From the NCBI GenBank assembly GCA_038045765.1, contig JBBSXN010000002.1:84450-131835 (forward strand): a stretch of 47,386 nucleotides of DNA, written 5' to 3'. Positions 2,875 to 45,903 of this stretch are shown here, piece after piece. Under the pieces are notes generated by a model that saw only the letters and a list, made by a program, of their open reading frames with translations, was not told where the DNA came from and did no database searches. The stretch is from Nanobdellota archaeon. Its GTDB lineage: Archaea > Nanobdellota > Nanobdellia > Pacearchaeales > GW2011-AR1. The first letter of the stretch is position 1, and each line of letters begins with the position of its first letter. The translations under genes were made by a program, and so were the position numbers.

Positions 2875-3967
2875 TTCTATCTGAAAGAAAAGCTAGTTCC
2901 TCTTCCCTCATTGATGGAAAAATAGGTAATGATAATATTCTTTTAGATAATCCTTCTGTTACTGGTAATTCTCCTTCTTTTAGTCTTAGATAGCTAAAAG
3001 CTGGTTGCATATGAATTGGAACTGGATAGTGTATTCCTGTGTCTATCCCATTAGATTTTAGATAATCTGCAAGTCTATCTCTATCTGGAACTTGAATTAC
3101 ATAAAGATGTTTTACATGAGTGTTCCCTTCAACTGTTTTAGGTAGAACTAAACCAGGAACTTCTTTAAGTCTTTCTGAGAGATAAAAAGCAGCCGTGGCT
3201 CTTGATTCGTTCCAATCTACTAAGTGGGGAAGCTTGACATTTAATACTGCTGCTTGTAAACCATCCATTCTTTTGTTAGATCCTAATACATCGTGATGAT
3301 ATTTTTCGGTTTGACCGTAATTTCTTAGACTTTTTATTCTTGCTATTAAAGATTCATCTTTAGAAAGAACTGCTCCTGCATCTCCGAAAGCTCCTAAATT
3401 CTTCCCTGGAAAAAAGCTGAAGGCTGCTGCATCTCCTAAATAACCAGGTAAACTTCCATTTTGTCTTGCTCCATGAGCTTGGCAAGCATCTTCAATTAAA
3501 ACTAATTTATATTCGTCTGCTATCTTTCTAAGTGCAGGCATATCTGCCTGCTGACCGTATAGATGAACTGGCATTATTGCTTTTGTTCTAGGAGTTATCT
3601 TTGCAGGAACTTGTTTTACATCCATGAGATCAGTTTCATGATCCACATCAACGAAAACTGGCTTAGCTCCGGCAGCGAAAATAGAAGATGCTGTTGCGAA
3701 AAAAGTATTTGAAACCGTTATGACTTCATCTCCTGCACCTATATCTTTTGCTCTTAAAATCAATTCTAATGCATCCGTACCAGAAGATAAGCCTGCGACA
3801 TTCTGTTTTCCAATTTGCCCATGATTCTGCGCAAAATTCTCTTCAAATTTTTCAACTTCAATTCCTAGAATATATGCATTTGCATCCACAATTCTTCTCC
3901 AGGCAGAATCTAATTCTGTTCTTATTGGATCATGAATTCTACTTAGATCATTAAAGGGTATTTTCAT
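2855..3967 (-). CDS. DegT/DnrJ/EryC1/StrS sugar aminotransferase (WbpE-like)
   Basis: SSGTDAL, PVHLYGQ, IEDACQAHG, FSFFPGKNLGAFGDAG (PLP lysine), IHYPVPIH. Start moved to MKIPF, which gives an ATGA overlap with the upstream gene. Confidence 0.93.
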   Translation of the reverse strand: MKIPFNDLSRIHDPIRTELDSAWRRIVDANAYILGIEVEKFEENFAQNHGQIGKQNVAGLSSGTDALELILRAKDIGAGDEVITVSNTFFATASSIFAAGAKPVFVDVDHETDLMDVKQVPAKITPRTKAIMPVHLYGQQADMPALRKIADEYKLVLIEDACQAHGARQNGSLPGYLGDAAAFSFFPGKNLGAFGDAGAVLSKDESLIARIKSLRNYGQTEKYHHDVLGSNKRMDGLQAAVLNVKLPHLVDWNESRATAAFYLSERLKEVPGLVLPKTVEGNTHVKHLYVIQVPDRDRLADYLKSNGIDTGIHYPVPIHMQPAFSYLRLKEGELPVTEGLSKRILSLPIFPSMREEELAFLSDRIKSFQK

Positions 3968-24526: not shown

Positions 24527-25276
24527 ATGGTATTAAAAGTTGAAGGTTCTTGGAATGAGTTCTGGAAGAAAAAAGGGAGTAAGATGGAATGGAAGAAAGA
24601 AGATGTTTTAGAATCAAAAGAATTAAAAGAAATTCTTGAAATTATGAAATCTCATCTTAGAAAGAGTAATGATAAAATCAGTTTAATAGAGCTTGGAGCA
24701 GGAATGGGCATTACTTCTTTATTTTTTGCACATCAGGGAGTTAAAGTAACTTTACTAGATAAATCTCCTGAGGCTAAGGGATTGGCAAAAGAATATTGGG
24801 ATGATATTGAAAAACATGAATATATTTTAGGAGATTTATTTACATTCTCTTCTAAGAAAAAGTATGATGTTGTGACTTCTTATGGATTATGTGAGCATTT
24901 TGTAGAAAAAAATAGAGAACTTGTACTTAAAAAGCATATTGAACTACTTGATAAAAAAGGCGTTGCATTAATTTCTGTCCCACATAAATACGGGATATTT
25001 TATAGAATCTCAAAGAAGATACAAGAAACTTTAGGATATTGGGATTTTGGTCTAGAAGTACCTTTCTCTAAGAATGAGCTGATAAATTTTGCTAACAGAA
25101 ATAAGCTAAATTATGAAATCATTATGAGCGGATTTTATGGCTCTGCTTATGACTTATTTGTTAGAAAACCCTTAAAAGTTCTTAATATCTCTTCAAAAAG
25201 AAGATTTGATTCTACCAAGAGTATTTTTGATGATATATTTGGAAGCGGTTTATTGATAATCTTAAAAAAAGGTTAA
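24527..25276 (+). CDS. Class I SAM-dependent methyltransferase
   Basis: IELGAGMG, LLDKS, GDLF, YDVVTSYGLCEHF. Confidence 0.85.
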   Translation: MVLKVEGSWNEFWKKKGSKMEWKKEDVLESKELKEILEIMKSHLRKSNDKISLIELGAGMGITSLFFAHQGVKVTLLDKSPEAKGLAKEYWDDIEKHEYILGDLFTFSSKKKYDVVTSYGLCEHFVEKNRELVLKKHIELLDKKGVALISVPHKYGIFYRISKKIQETLGYWDFGLEVPFSKNELINFANRNKLNYEIIMSGFYGSAYDLFVRKPLKVLNISSKRRFDSTKSIFDDIFGSGLLIILKKG

Positions 25277-25815
25277 TTGTATTTAATCTCCAAAACTGAT
25301 AATCTCTCCATAAATAGGTTTTTTGATTCTAATATTTTGAATTTTAAATTTAAACCTTTTAGAGTGCTTTCTATCCTTTCAAATGGTGAAAGTGAGGAGA
25401 TGATTATTAGTATTATCCCTGATTTTGCTAAATGTTTTTTTGCTTGTTTAAGAAATTTTATAGTTAGTTCATCGCCTTTTTTACCTCCTGAAGTTATAAG
25501 ACTAGATTGTGAATCTTCTCTTACATCTTTTGGTAGATAAGGTGGATTAAATATAATTAAATCATATTTGCCTTTTATTTTTGAGAATAAGTTAGAATAA
25601 ATTGACTCTATTCCTAGAGATTTTATTTTTTTAACTGCTAATTTATTTATATCTGAAGCTAAAATGGACTTGGCTTTGGCTTTTTTGGCCGTTAAGGCTT
25701 GAATTCCTGAGCCAGAACCAATGTCTAAAACTTTTTTATTTTTTGCATATTTTTTTACTTGTTTAGCAAGAAGAAAAGAATCATCTGAAGGCTCATAAAT
25801 AAGATTATTAGTCAT
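25273..25815 (-). CDS. HemK2/PrmC-family (aRF1 glutamine N5) methyltransferase; may start at 25986 through an in-frame insertion
   Basis: IYEPSDDSFLL, VLDIGSGSG, SNLF, IIFNPPYLP, SGGKKG. Confidence 0.88.
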   Translation of the reverse strand: MTNNLIYEPSDDSFLLAKQVKKYAKNKKVLDIGSGSGIQALTAKKAKAKSILASDINKLAVKKIKSLGIESIYSNLFSKIKGKYDLIIFNPPYLPKDVREDSQSSLITSGGKKGDELTIKFLKQAKKHLAKSGIILIIISSLSPFERIESTLKGLNLKFKILESKNLFMERLSVLEIKYN

Positions 25816-25986
25816 CAAAAAAACGATGTGCCACTCCTTCTTAAAAGCAGTGGTTTGTGACAGGCACTCGTTTTTTGGATGCAGGAAAATATCTATTATT
25901 TTCCTGACTAGAAAATCTACTGATTTTCTATGCTCAAGATTCACCACACACTTCAGTGTGTGGTTTTCTGCCAAGAATCTTGACAT
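25813..25986. mobile_element. Non-autonomous multi-hairpin palindromic element (MITE/REPIN-like)
   Basis: Four stacked inverted repeats (caaaaaaacga-tgtgcc/ggcac-tcgttttttg; caggaaaata/tattttcctg; tagaaaatc/gattttcta; tcaagattc/gaatcttga enclosing ccacacac-ttca-gtgtgtgg), bounded by CAT at both ends; partial copy at 12783. Confidence 0.65.
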
Positions 25987-25992
25987 AATAAA

Positions 25993-26445
25993 TTAAGATG
26001 ATATTGCTAATAGAATTTTCTCTTTAAAGACTATCAAAATTAAAAGAAGAGCTATTAATATTGTGAAAGTTATTACTAAACCTATAACTACTTTCTTTGC
26101 TGTTCCTTGAAGTTGTTTTCCATCTATTTTTGGTTGAATTGCCATTGGGGAATTTGGTTGAATTGTTGGTTGCACTATCGGCTGATAAATTGGAAATTGA
26201 ATAGGGTTTGGTTTGACTTGGTTAGATTGGACTTGATTTGACTTTACTTGGTTAGATTGAACTGGATTTTCTTTTACTGCTGATGGATTTACTATTTGAG
26301 TAACTCCTGATGAGAGTTCATTTGCAGCCTCTTGTACTGTTCTAGGATTATATCCTGCATTAATAAAAGACTGAACTGCTCTTTCTAACGATTGGCCTCT
26401 TTCTAGTGCATTTCTTAGCCCTCCAATTATCTCATTATCAGTCAT
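25993..26445 (-). CDS. Hypothetical protein with Gln/Pro-rich linker and C-terminal TM anchor
   Basis: N-terminal helical domain (LRNALERGQSLERAVQSFINAGY), QSNQV repeats, C-terminal hydrophobic helix. Confidence 0.75.
   Translation of the reverse strand: MTDNEIIGGLRNALERGQSLERAVQSFINAGYNPRTVQEAANELSSGVTQIVNPSAVKENPVQSNQVKSNQVQSNQVKPNPIQFPIYQPIVQPTIQPNSPMAIQPKIDGKQLQGTAKKVVIGLVITFTILIALLLILIVFKEKILLAISS
26198..26268. repeat. Imperfect 15-bp coding tandem repeat (V[QK]SNQ pentapeptides)
   Basis: acttggttagattg occurs at 26216 and 26246; the protein reads VQSNQVKSNQVQSNQVKPNP. Confidence 0.75.
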
Positions 26446-27773
26446 AGGTTTAATACTCCTTCATTATCTAGTAAATGTACTGTTTTATTTCTTTTGTATC
26501 CCATTTCTTCAGCTAAAGATGCTCCTGCTTCTCTCTTTTTTAGTTCTCCGTGTGAGGGAATTACATGTTCTGGTTTTGTAAGGTTTATTAAATCTCTCAA
26601 ATCTTCTTTTCCACCATGACCTGAAACGTGTATATTGTCAAATATCCTTACTTGCTTTTTTTTCAATCTTTTTTCTAATTCTGCTCTTGAAAGTTCATTT
26701 ATTGGAGTTGGAATTGTTTTTGAAGAAAATATTATATCATAGTCTGAATTCAATTCAAGAGGTAATTGATTTTTTGATAACCTATCTAATATAGAACCTG
26801 GTTCGCCTTGATGCCCAGTACATACAATAAGATAATCTTTTTTATTTTTGTTTATCTGCTTAAGAATCTTTTCCATCTTGTGCCTATATGTTAAAGATTT
26901 TACGTCTTTCATGAATGGAGCTTTGCCTATATTTGAGGCAGCTGTGACATATTTGTTTAGACTCCTGCCAAGAAAAATAACCTGTCTATTCATCCTCTTT
27001 CCCAGTTCTGCAATAGTTTTTAGTCTTGAAATATGTGAAGAGAATGTTGTAATTATTATCCCTTTATTTGAATTGTCTGTTGTAAATAGAACTTCTTCAA
27101 GAAGATTCTTTGCAATTTTCTCAGAAGGAGTCTTTCTATCATCTGGAGCGTATAGGCAGTCAACTATCAATGCTTTCACTCCCATCTTAGCAAGTTCTTT
27201 CAAACGAGTATAATTTGGCTTATCTCCAAAGACAGGAGAGTTGTCAAGTTTGTAATCATTAGCGTATAAAATAATTCCTTCAGGAGTGTGCACTGCAATA
27301 ATTGCAGATTCTATTGTTGAGTGAGTCATATTTATGAACTCAACTTTATAAGGAATTTTTCCTCTTACTGTGAAACTTTGATTTGGCTTTAATGGAATTA
27401 ATCTGTTAGGTATTCTTTGATTTGAGTCTTGCATTAATACTTTTAATACTTCTATAGTATAGCTTGTTCCTAAAACTGGAGCTCTGTATCTAGGACCTAT
27501 ATATGGAACTCCTCCCACATGATCTAGATGTGCGTGTGAAATTAGTAATGCTCTTACTTTATCTTTTAAATTGTGCTTATCAAGATATAAGTCATTAGGT
27601 AAGGCACCTAGTGCTCGCATACCTTTTTCAGTAGGTATTTTTTCTCTTTCTTCAACTCCTACTATTGCAGGTAAGAAAAGCCCTGCATCAAAAATAAGAA
27701 CATCTTCTCCAACTTCTAAGATAGTCATATTCTTTCCAACTTCATCATAACCTCCTATTGCGTGTATCTTCAT
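26442..27773 (-). CDS. rnj: Archaeal ribonuclease J (beta-CASP metallo-beta-lactamase)
   Basis: IGGYDEVGKNMT, ISHAHLDHVGG, THST, DYKLD, TGHQGEP, HVSGHG, IPSHG. Confidence 0.93.
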   Translation of the reverse strand: MKIHAIGGYDEVGKNMTILEVGEDVLIFDAGLFLPAIVGVEEREKIPTEKGMRALGALPNDLYLDKHNLKDKVRALLISHAHLDHVGGVPYIGPRYRAPVLGTSYTIEVLKVLMQDSNQRIPNRLIPLKPNQSFTVRGKIPYKVEFINMTHSTIESAIIAVHTPEGIILYANDYKLDNSPVFGDKPNYTRLKELAKMGVKALIVDCLYAPDDRKTPSEKIAKNLLEEVLFTTDNSNKGIIITTFSSHISRLKTIAELGKRMNRQVIFLGRSLNKYVTAASNIGKAPFMKDVKSLTYRHKMEKILKQINKNKKDYLIVCTGHQGEPGSILDRLSKNQLPLELNSDYDIIFSSKTIPTPINELSRAELEKRLKKKQVRIFDNIHVSGHGGKEDLRDLINLTKPEHVIPSHGELKKREAGASLAEEMGYKRNKTVHLLDNEGVLNL

Positions 27774-27858
27774 TGTTTTAAAAAGCAAATCTATGTTTAT
27801 ATAACTTGTTGGACAAAAAAATGGATAGTAATAAAAAGGTTATTGATTTAAGTTTATA

Positions 27859-43124: not shown

Positions 43125-43237
43125 TGGGGGTGCCAAGATTTGAACTTGGATCATGAAGTTGTCTGTGTTTCCATCTCTTGAATATGAGACGCAATCAACC
43201 CAAACCTCATATGTTAACCAGGTTGCACCACACCCCC
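43125..43237 (-). tRNA. tRNA-Pro(UGG) with a 39-nt intron at canonical position 37/38 (intron 43160-43198)
   Basis: GGGGGTG/CACCCCC acceptor stem, CCAAG-TTCAAAT-CTTGG T-arm, TGAGG/CTTCA anticodon stem, loop TT-TGG-G|A. BHB central helix TTTG/CAGA with 3-nt bulges. CCA not encoded. Confidence 0.93.
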
Positions 43238-45156: not shown

Positions 45157-45903
45157 CTACTTCTTCTTTGCTGCAGGTTTCTCTTCCTTCTTTGCTGCTG
45201 CAGGTGTAGCTGCTTTTGCTCCGGCTGCTGGTGCTGCTGTTGCAGCTGCTGGTGCTCCAGGTACTGCGGCTGCTCCGGCTGCTGGTGCTGCTGTTGCAGC
45301 TGCTACCTTTGCTGCTTCTGCTGCAGCTGCTGCTTCTGCTGCTGCTTTTGCTTCTTTCTCTTGCTTGTTCTTAACGTCGTTAAAGAATGTAAGAAGAGAT
45401 TTCTTTTTATCATCTGAAATTTTGTCTTTTCCAGATAAGATTTCTTTATCATAAACGCCTTGTGCAATTTCCTTAGCTACTTCTTTTGCTTCTTTGTTTT
45501 CAACTAAAAGACCAAGAGAAACGCATGAACCTGTAACTAATTGAACTGCTGCTTTCAAATTCTTTGCAAGAAGGTTAGGCATCTTCATATTTGCAACAGC
45601 AATAATTTGTTCTATACCTAGATTTCCTACCTTAACTTTATGAGCCAGGCCTGAACCTTTTTCTGCTCCTGCTTCCTTCTTTAATAATTCTGCAACTCCT
45701 GGTGAGAATACTTTTACTGTGAATGTTTTTGACTTTGTATCAACATCAATTTCAACTGGAACGTTCATTCCTTTGAATCCGGCTGTAGCTGAATTTACAT
45801 CAGACATTATTTTTCCTAAGTTTACGCCTAGAGGTCCAATCTGCTGTGAGACTGCCGGTCCCGGTTTCATATTCCCGCCTTCAACAATTAATTTTACTTT
45901 CAT
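45157..45903 (-). CDS. rpl11: 50S ribosomal protein L11 (uL11) with long Ala-rich C-terminal extension
   Basis: VEGGNMKPGPAVSQQIGPLGVN, GMNVPVEI, VTGSCVSLG. Confidence 0.95.
   Translation of the reverse strand: MKVKLIVEGGNMKPGPAVSQQIGPLGVNLGKIMSDVNSATAGFKGMNVPVEIDVDTKSKTFTVKVFSPGVAELLKKEAGAEKGSGLAHKVKVGNLGIEQIIAVANMKMPNLLAKNLKAAVQLVTGSCVSLGLLVENKEAKEVAKEIAQGVYDKEILSGKDKISDDKKKSLLTFFNDVKNKQEKEAKAAAEAAAAAEAAKVAAATAAPAAGAAAVPGAPAAATAAPAAGAKAATPAAAKKEEKPAAKKK
45217..45304. repeat. Perfect 34-bp direct repeat within the uL11 tail
   Basis: tgctccggctgctggtgctgctgttgcagctgct at 45217-45250 and 45271-45304 (encodes AAATAAPAAGA). Confidence 0.85.

Follow-up and report, generated by a model that had tools for sequence, protein, structure and literature searches.

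In a 47,386-nucleotide (nt) stretch of a Nanobdellota genome (GenBank assembly GCA_038045765.1, contig JBBSXN010000002.1, positions 84,450 to 131,835), which we analyzed at its full length and refer to as the window, a compact cluster of hairpins lies across the start of a gene for a HemK2/MTQ2-family methyltransferase. The host is a tiny groundwater archaeon, and its own assembly (G000) is 880 kb in length and 86% complete. The methyltransferase gene is on the minus strand (25273..25815) and encodes 180 amino acids (aa) without the extension described below and 237 aa with it; its identity was confirmed by TIGR00537 (122.7 bits against a cut-off of 87). On the same strand, an open reading frame (ORF) for a membrane protein of 150 aa (25993..26445) lies directly upstream; it matched no protein family, and its homologues abut the HemK2 start in relatives. 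Along the minus strand, the TAA stop of this ORF (25995-25993) is followed by tttatt, an ATG (25986-25984), four hairpins, TTTTTTTG, and a second ATG (25815-25813) that begins the protein sequence MTNNLIYEP, with the letters directly before the second ATG reading ...CGTTTTTTTG. A first-pass annotation, made from the letters alone, had described the segment 25813-25986 as four hairpins with CAT at both ends on the plus strand and an inner ccacacac hairpin, and the sequence and its fold match this description in every particular. The same annotation had placed an ATG 6 nt past the upstream stop and 57 open codons ahead of MTNNLIYEP, which is borne out by the sequence and by the ORF table, where the ORF 25273-25986 (minus strand) has 237 aa, that is, 57 codons plus 180 aa.

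The predicted fold is far more stable than that of shuffled sequence. The minus strand of a 191-nt region that includes the segment has a folding energy of -67.8 kcal/mol, whereas dinucleotide-shuffled versions reach -35.7 +/- 4.0 (z -8.11), none of the 200 folding as well, and the plus-strand fold of the hairpin segment has a z of -7.45. We set the phase of the element from the sharp 3' end of the family to which it belongs. The left-end long hairpin, H1 (25930..25986, minus strand, as are all parts of the element), rises from a lower stem (ATGTCAAGATTC / GAATCTTGAGCAT) through an asymmetric internal loop to an 8-bp hairpin at its apex. Within it lie the left near-terminal, IPL-like palindrome ccacacac-TGAA-gtgtgtgg (25944..25963), the loop of which reads ttca on the plus strand, and a putative left guide, AAAA (25964-25967), comprising the 4 nt on the 5' side of the palindrome foot as in the IS608 rule discussed below. 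The right-end long hairpin, H2 (25814..25878), combines CCAAAAAACGAGTGC / CACATCGTTTTTTT as its lower stem with an internal loop whose last four letters, CAAA (25854-25857), are the putative right guide, and with an apical hairpin (25831-25853) that is partly decayed in the HemK2 copy; its 3' end is TGAT. Between the two long hairpins are two optional modules, the small hairpins B (agaaaatc-agta-gattttct; 25910..25929) and C (caggaaaata-atag-atattttcctg; 25882..25906). Two other structural interpretations were considered and rejected. A K-turn in H1, judged by eye, has the wrong bulge length and lacks GA after the 3-nt bulge, and splicing of the element from the mRNA at a bulge-helix-bulge motif would need an outer helix formed by chance AT-rich flanks that are absent at other copies.

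The empty allele and the insertion at HemK2

HemK2 was present in 22 of the 26 genomes searched, and we compared the upstream region of the gene in 11 relatives. The same upstream gene abuts HemK2 in six of them (G001, G003, G004, G007, G010, and G015), with anything from an overlap to a 5-nt spacer. Among the other five, three have the homologue of the upstream gene farther off with another coding region between, and two have a different or unmatched upstream gene. No element arms were found by eye upstream of HemK2 in any of the 11, nor did a blastn-short search with five element copies against 80 metagenomic HemK2 loci give a match at E <= 1e-3. The closest relative among these 80 loci (73% aa identity) has the junction TAG-t-ATG and the protein start MIDKSIYEP, and all 17 reconstructed HemK2 N-termini start 1-6 residues ahead of IY(E/S/Q)P.

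An empty allele of the site itself was found among contigs from public sequencing runs, which were compared with positions 25400-26400. A contig of 411 nt at a depth of 18, from a run belonging to another study (X5), matches 25652-25812 with 11 differences and 25984-26233 with 6, and thus represents a strain about 96% identical to ours. This contig joins 25812 to 25984, skipping exactly 171 nt, with three letters (CAT/ATG) that fit either side, so that the insertion may be placed anywhere from 25813-25983 up to 25816-25986; none of the listed differences lies less than a dozen bases from the joint. A comparison of the orthologous locus, which had been suggested as a check on the first-pass annotation, thus yields an empty site both in this strain, as an exact 171-nt difference, and in all relatives examined.

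The empty allele reads stop, tttatt, ATG, act..., and because it already holds tttatt, the 6-nt spacer (25987..25992) is ancestral and lies outside the element; its end forms, with the next two bases, the tetranucleotide TTAT. When the 3' end is set at GAT, the event reads tttattAT / GTCAAG...TTTTTTTGAT / Gact, which places the landing point inside the start codon, after its T and before its G. The inserted element (25814..25984), as defined by the run X5 joint and the family 3' end, is then 171 nt, or 57 codons, from GTCAAG... to ...TTTTTTTGAT. The first base of the element is G, its last two are AT, and the gene continues with G, so that a complete ATG was restored at either junction. The regenerated upstream ATG (25984..25986) consists of the AT of the old start codon and the first G of the element, with the native upstream context intact, while the second ATG (25813..25815) consists of the last AT of the element and the old G, occupies the ancestral HemK2 start position, and, in the predicted fold, is paired within the foot of H2.

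Copies, ends, and target of the family

The element belongs to a family of modular repeats. With the 191-nt region as a query, we obtained 32 matches in the host assembly, in the form of differing combinations of the four modules, at about 19 loci (16 that were read and folded and three added by a motif scan). The core of the family is the pair of long hairpins H1 and H2, the H2 lower stem being followed by GAT. Each of the two occurs either "empty", with a 3-5-nt loop, or "full", with an asymmetric internal loop and an apical 8-bp hairpin that has a TTTA-type loop. In the host assembly, three copies carry hairpins B and C in the interval from H1 to H2, and B is also found in congeners. Element lengths range from 60 to 230 nt at copies other than the one at HemK2 and are too short for a transposase.

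Matches to the element were found in 14 of 41 genomes, including the host, all seven congeners, and several other genera. Full-H1 copies numbered 12 in G005, 11 in G001, seven in G004, five in G006, three in G000, one in G002, and none in G003 and G007, with 0-1 in controls, and the dominant variant of the lower stem differs species by species. In a genome of another genus (G079), there are 13 near-identical H1+H2 copies, some with extra small hairpins in the palindrome loop or between H1 and H2; small hairpins related to B and C sit elsewhere within the G079 copies. A scan of 185,579 species genomes with a 17-base pattern returned at least 118 loci, and among the matches listed 23 were true copies. 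Again among the matches listed, all 18 true copies with titles came from metagenome-assembled genomes named Nanoarchaeota, Woesearchaeota, or Pacearchaeota. Bacterial matches to the pattern were due to chance, and viral contigs gave 51 pattern matches and no true element copies. The proposal of a multi-copy, modular element family in DPANN archaea thus holds, and the alternative named alongside it, a single-copy sequence conserved in all relatives, is excluded both by the copy number and by the empty HemK2 site in relatives.

Two features of the G079 copies may be recorded here. Copies L269, L273, and L275 adjoin the right end of another copy, so that TGAT is followed by GTCAAG, which is the junction expected from a circular intermediate or a tandem insertion. 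Small hairpins nested in palindrome loops occur in copies L266 and L273 of this genome, as well as at the right ends of TnpA-bearing insertion sequences (IS) in two further genomes (L281 and L282 in G005; L059 in G032).

Both ends of the element follow simple rules. All 22 H2-bearing copies end in ...GAT and then run into unrelated sequence, the family's 3' end being a sharp TGAT, as at HemK2. On the left, TTAT flanks 27 of 34 full-H1 copies (19 of 25 parsed automatically and 8 of 9 parsed by hand), and the remaining flanks are TGAT (three), TAAT (two), TCAT (one), and AGAT (one). Conservation on this side extends four bases beyond GTCAAG; this makes the conserved span longer than the insertion of 171 bases, and, as the empty allele has TTAT too, the tetranucleotide is the target rather than element sequence. 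The termini, GTCAAG... and ...TTTTTTTGAT, form no terminal inverted repeat and share at most 4-5 nt (TCAA/TTGA). No flanking direct repeat was seen at other copies, and at HemK2 any target duplication has to be judged from one filled/empty pair, with its 171-nt difference and 3-nt ambiguity. The near-terminal palindromes have 8-bp stems and 4-nt loops, the left one lying 21 nt inside its end of the element and the right one 20 nt inside the other.

In IS608, the cleavage sites are TTAC and TCAA, and the corresponding guides, AAAG and GAAT, adjoin the palindrome foot on its 5' side, with A+16 pairing with T-3 and A+17 with T-4 (PMC3201880, PMC5934647). From this we derived a position rule in which the first, second, and fourth guide bases pair with target positions -3, -4, and -1, respectively. 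Applied to the element, the rule predicts TTAT from AAAA and TGAT from CAAA, and both are seen. In the single copy whose guide deviates (CTAA), the flank is the one doubly deviant one, AGAT, as the rule predicts. The rule also extends to the right ends of IS copies from the lineage, where GAAA predicts TCAT, found 10 nt past the palindrome in G012, G024, and G032, and where GACG in the G005 IS predicts TCAC, found exactly where two G005 copies diverge.

Probable kinship with IS200/IS605 elements

The first-pass annotation had likened the inner hairpin to the ends of IS200/IS605 elements, and the transposase-bearing elements of the lineage uphold this comparison. Y1_Tnp genes were found in 12 of the 41 genomes, flanked on both sides by 8-bp hairpins with TTTA or CTTG loops, and the format of 8 bp plus a TTTA loop recurs at at least six TnpA loci. 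The right-end hairpin of the G012 IS, ctccacac-TTTA-gtgtggag, recurs without change in G006 as the left palindrome of element copy L018. The G024 IS has two hairpins similar to that of G012, and the two IS share a 14-nt exact core with the apical hairpins of the element.

We consider it probable that the element is a non-autonomous transposon of the IS200/IS605 type, PATE-like in build and REP-like in habit, and that the HemK2 copy is a recent, strain-polymorphic insertion of it. Under this explanation, which we hold with the same confidence as a whole, the element would move as single-stranded DNA with a Y1 (HUH) transposase supplied in trans. It has two long hairpins, each with a near-terminal 8-bp palindrome and a putative 4-nt guide at the 5' foot, and would insert 3' of TTAT, with no target duplication and with its own end in TGAT. 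At HemK2, TTAT was composed of the end of the spacer and the first two bases of the start codon (tttattAT/G), and ribosomes would now start at the upstream ATG and read 57 element codons into an intact HemK2. The family itself is new, while the type of element, PATE-like and non-autonomous with respect to an IS200/IS605-type transposase, is already known.

The closest known parallels are the PATEs of Haloquadratum walsbyi, which derive from IS605-type transposons (PMC3119063). Like the element, PATEs lack inverted terminal repeats, have palindromes near both termini, and are too short for a transposase (PMC3119063). PATEs also produce no target duplication (PMC3119063), with which the lack of flanking direct repeats at other copies of the element would agree. 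Also shared are targeting by 4-5 nt on the 5' side, insertions that are specific to a strain, and copies that are core-deleted or otherwise heterogeneous (PMC3119063). Tiny SMR-A repeats lodge in PATE palindromes, much as small hairpins are nested in palindrome loops here (PMC3119063). The element differs in its occurrence in DPANN archaea rather than haloarchaea, in palindromes that stand atop long covarying lower stems reaching the element ends, in the lack of any sequence-related full-length IS among those found, and in having two copies in frame inside genes.

IS608 moves by the single-strand "peel-and-paste" transposition of a Y1 (HUH) TnpA. Likenesses to it include insertion 3' of a fixed tetranucleotide (TTAC there, TTAT here), an apparently seamless donor joint, and a left cleavage site 19 nt (IS608) or 21 nt (the element) 5' of the left palindrome (PMC3201880, PMC5934647). 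The guide tetranucleotides lie 5' of the palindromes under the same position rule, and there may also be a shared bias toward the lagging-strand template, which is known for the IS200/IS605 family (PMC5027513). On contig C5 of the host, eight of nine copies have the active strand on the lagging-strand template, a small sample for which the origin was assumed to lie at the sole orc1/cdc6 gene (105 kb). The GC skew of C5 flips near 30 kb, not at orc1/cdc6, and element orientation switches between 32 and 50 kb. Unlike IS608, the element has no tnpA or tnpB inside, a right end 20 rather than 10 nt past the palindrome, and extra lower stems.

In bacteria, REP, BIME, and REPIN sequences are short, structured, high-copy intergenic palindromes mobilized with RAYT (TnpA-REP) proteins. 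The element shares with them a mosaic of modules, old copies that are still recognizable, and a suspected Y1 enzyme, and differs from them in lacking a GTAG-type 5' tag and in its clean, transposon-like insertion with a defined target. Rickettsia palindromic elements are palindromic repeats that reside in frame inside protein genes and add peptide segments. Such residence is exceptional here, with two in-frame copies set against 38 parsed copies that contain stops.

Several observations weigh against the IS200/IS605-type explanation, the first group of them concerning the transposase. At 12 TnpA loci, only stretches of 12-18 nt were shared with the element, and no element copies adjoined the genes. 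The distribution of Y1_Tnp hardly tracks that of the element (6 of 14 genomes with the element and 6 of 27 without), and no Y1_Tnp gene was found in the copy-rich genomes G079, G001, and G004, whose assemblies are 78-89% complete. The Y1 genes of G005 are broken at contig ends, which shows that IS copies of this kind are lost in assembly. In the host, the only Y1 homologue is on contig C6 (3424 nt; 2988-3380, minus strand; 130 aa) and aligns to the Sulfolobus proteins 2ec2 and 2f4f, with Gln in place of the first His of HUH and Ile in place of the Tyr of KKYIE, which we take to be the catalytic residue in the aligned proteins. This homologue falls just under the NCBIfam cut-off, scores only 21.9 bits with REP_Tyr_transpos, and is apparently catalytically dead, as judged by these substitutions. 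No TnpB stood out in the host (PF07282, only 14 bits), and no RAYT-like gene flanked by element copies was found. The expected TnpA(Y1) or RAYT gene with matching ends has thus not turned up in active form.

A second group concerns the guide rule and the ends. The rule needs the palindrome foot to be placed at the 8-bp stem, excluding a possible extra A-T pair, and only one case covaries. The three TGAT and two TAAT flanks are not predicted by it, and the guide GAAA in three G005 copies accompanies TTAT or TGAT, which is wobble at best. The 20 nt from the right palindrome to the end compare with 10 nt not only in IS608 but also in the IS copies of the lineage, and the long lower stems would need to melt before a guide could meet its cleavage site. 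The 3-nt ambiguity of the joint, taken alone, leaves room for a 2-bp AT duplication. Finally, old copies at orthologous places, described below, are still near consensus, which pure neutrality does not explain and which points to selection or homogenization beyond simple parasitism. Contig C6 has a higher G+C (0.358) and repeat-rich, secreted-looking ORFs; its Y1 homologue may belong to a decayed IS, or the contig may be DNA foreign to this organism.

Small hairpin repeats are frequent in DPANN archaea, and a filled/empty allele pair, a defined target and end, and a match between guide and target would tie one such family to Y1 single-strand transposition. A survey ranks a Woesearchaea genome among the archaea richest in miniature transposable elements with inverted repeats (MITEs) (PMC11602168). 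A broader generalization, which we offer as speculation and think rather unlikely to hold in full, is that DPANN hairpin repeats are self-folding single-strand transposons of the IS200/IS605 type, whose ends are clamped side by side by long covarying stems and whose transposase comes from outside the chromosome, with stop-free copies of a multiple of three nucleotides giving rise to protein extensions or inserts. Given the target TTAT, the first G, and the final AT, TT-ATG start codons would then be natural landing sites. Were the enzyme to come, for example, from a plasmid or virus or from the episymbiont's host, this would explain why genomes with young copies lack the gene. If this were true, the family would be an archaeal counterpart of the Rickettsia palindromic elements with a defined mechanism.

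Possible translation of the insert and rival explanations

The HemK2 copy has no stop in the ATG frame and seven and three stops in the other two sense frames. Among 39 automatically parsed copies from nine genomes, it is the only one that is stop-free in this frame, the other 38 having 1-7 stops. Other full-H1 copies of the host have TAG in the palindrome loop (...ctt TAG or ...cat TAG), and the change of the loop to TGAA from TTTA in the HemK2 copy removes this stop. A second in-frame case, parsed by hand, is locus L016 of the congener G005, where a 114-nt H1+H2 copy (TTAT/G...GAT/G; 38 open codons) sits 16 codons into a 354-aa ORF, in the apparent signal-peptide region of what appears to be a gene for a secreted protein. 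The sole homologue found for this ORF (47% identity over 218 residues) lacks the inserted stretch. In-gene copies are rare, and both are multiples of three and stop-free, which fits a survivorship filter. The idea that the element can create new peptide extensions therefore stands at the level of ORFs, in two independent cases (HemK2 and L016), and does not stand as a general property, since the other parsed copies have stops.

Whether the 57 codons are read is a finer question, on which we lean, by a modest degree and from sequence features, toward translation as part of HemK2. The upstream ATG keeps its whole native context of stop, 6 nt, and ATG, and the second ATG is paired in the foot of H2, so that initiation would be expected at the upstream ATG, giving a 237-aa protein. 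The tight coupling of HemK2 to the preceding gene in relatives supports the same start. That the insertion is real and its codons untranslated, with initiation at the second ATG or with HemK2 silenced, is a genuine possibility to which we give somewhat less credence. In its favor, the second ATG is at the ancestral start position, and an open frame of 56-57 codons has a chance of 0.010-0.015 in non-coding composition, or about 1 in 70-100. The 57-aa peptide matched no family, only two orphan ORFs (53 and 87 aa) being found among 1.84 billion representative proteins, and in AlphaFold2 models with 18 sequences, the extension had a pLDDT of 33-72 and no confident fold, compared with >90 for the methyltransferase core. 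Archaeal transcription terminates at oligo-T. The T7 run that precedes the second ATG may end part of the transcripts, perhaps many of them, and together with the H2 stem may lower HemK2 expression. None of the public runs listed for the locus was an RNA run. Against an untranslated insert, the second ATG has no purine-rich motif at a usable distance in addition to being paired, and the contrast between the stop-bearing parsed copies and the sole other in-gene copy, which is stop-free in frame, looks like a filter for read-through. If translation is assumed, HemK2/MTQ2, an essential-type modifier of a translation factor, has gained 57 residues undestroyed through a rare event, that is, a transposon landing in a start codon with ATG rebuilt on both sides. 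The L016 case in a secreted protein of a congener would likewise represent a route to new peptide segments in very small genomes.

A further alternative is that the hairpin cluster is a REP-like structure that serves the host, acting as RNA or DNA as a bidirectional terminator, an mRNA stabilizer, or a protein-binding site, with mobility incidental or extinct. We regard this as improbable. It draws support from the fold, which counts in favor of the IS200/IS605-type explanation as well. In an alignment of 16 H2 modules from eight genomes, 97.1% of pair cells hold standard pairs, and 12 of 22 pairs are changed on both sides (44 cells), a number reached by none of 500 shuffles. When the partner is slid by 1-3 columns, pairing falls to 35-57%. 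Hardly any variation is seen in the H2 lower stem, in its internal loop (...CAAA), or in the 3' tail, and the apical stems, which vary freely, remain paired. About 10 G-U cells are set against 4 C-A cells on this strand, a mild strand asymmetry. The element fold, by this comparative evidence, is under selection. A host-serving role is also favored by the near-invariance of lower stems and internal loops across species that share only 55-60% identity in their proteins, and by the T runs that border the H2 stem on both strands. At three places, the host and a congener (G000/G003 or G000/G002) each have a copy beside orthologous genes. In one such pair, in the same orientation, the host keeps H1 only and G003 keeps B, C, and H2, and this retention of complementary modules looks like differential decay of one ancestral insertion.

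The placement of copies and their history speak against a host-serving structure. At the 19 loci of the host, the numbers in divergent, convergent, and tandem spacers (9/2/8) are close to those expected from spacer length (6.7/2.6/9.7), and tandem spacers hold copies in both orientations. An association with promoters or terminators was rejected since copies follow spacer length and not spacer class, and a seeming preference for downstream genes in the same orientation was gone once divergent spacers were discounted. Three copies are near tRNA genes: C5:195680-195765 ends 4 nt before tRNA-Ala (195770-195840), C5:340494-340617 starts 7 nt after tRNA-Ile (340392-340486), and C4:13959-14024 lies 56 nt from a tRNA-Glu gene. 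The absence of the HemK2 copy from the strain of about 96% identity and from all relatives examined argues for a recent gain at a site that needs no such signal. Species-specific dominant variants and the 13 near-identical G079 copies indicate recent amplification. No Rfam family matched the element at the gathering score, the sole match in the window being a tRNA at 43125-43237, and at E <= 10 the best E-value in the region 25700-26100 was only 0.24.

We think it very unlikely that the element is instead a classical cut-and-paste MITE, moved by a DDE transposase with a 2-bp AT target duplication. The ambiguity of the HemK2 joint would permit an AT...AT duplication there, and every copy is AT-flanked on the left and ends in AT. 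The termini, GTCAAG... and ...TTTTTTTG, are no inverted repeats, though, and the conserved left flank is four bases long (TTAT) rather than two. The deviant flank matches its own deviant guide, and the near-terminal palindromes are like those of IS200/IS605 copies. An assembly artefact, with a repeat wrongly threaded into the locus, is next to inconceivable even though the modules are repeated and contigs of several runs break within them. Run X1, which may have been the source of the window, has a contig without differences (record 1) over the full stretch, and run X4, from another sample, has two that bridge the junctions, one (25405-25882) connecting HemK2 to the element and the other (25930-26400) connecting the element to the upstream gene. 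With both junctions covered, this concern of the first-pass annotation is excluded. The latter X4 contig (record 15), identical over 25930-26400, goes on past H1 for 13 nt that lead straight into the 5' arm of H2, and this joint may come from a form of the copy that lacks hairpins B and C, or from the assembly graph.

Three other features of the window may be mentioned. Upstream of the 150-aa ORF, and overlapping it by 4 nt, is an ORF of 448 aa (26442-27788, minus strand) with a metallo-beta-lactamase-type HxHxDH motif. It may be a beta-CASP/RNase J-like protein, as judged by eye, and HemK2 would then be the third gene of a tightly packed operon. The tRNA matched by Rfam (minus strand, 113 nt, 44.2 bits) presumably bears an intron, and ARAGORN reported no tRNA in the whole window. 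Positions 45166-45363 contain overlapping repeats of the GCTGCTGC type with a period of 9-15 nt, including 12 copies of a 54-nt family, and are probably a low-complexity, Ala/Ser-rich coding stretch.

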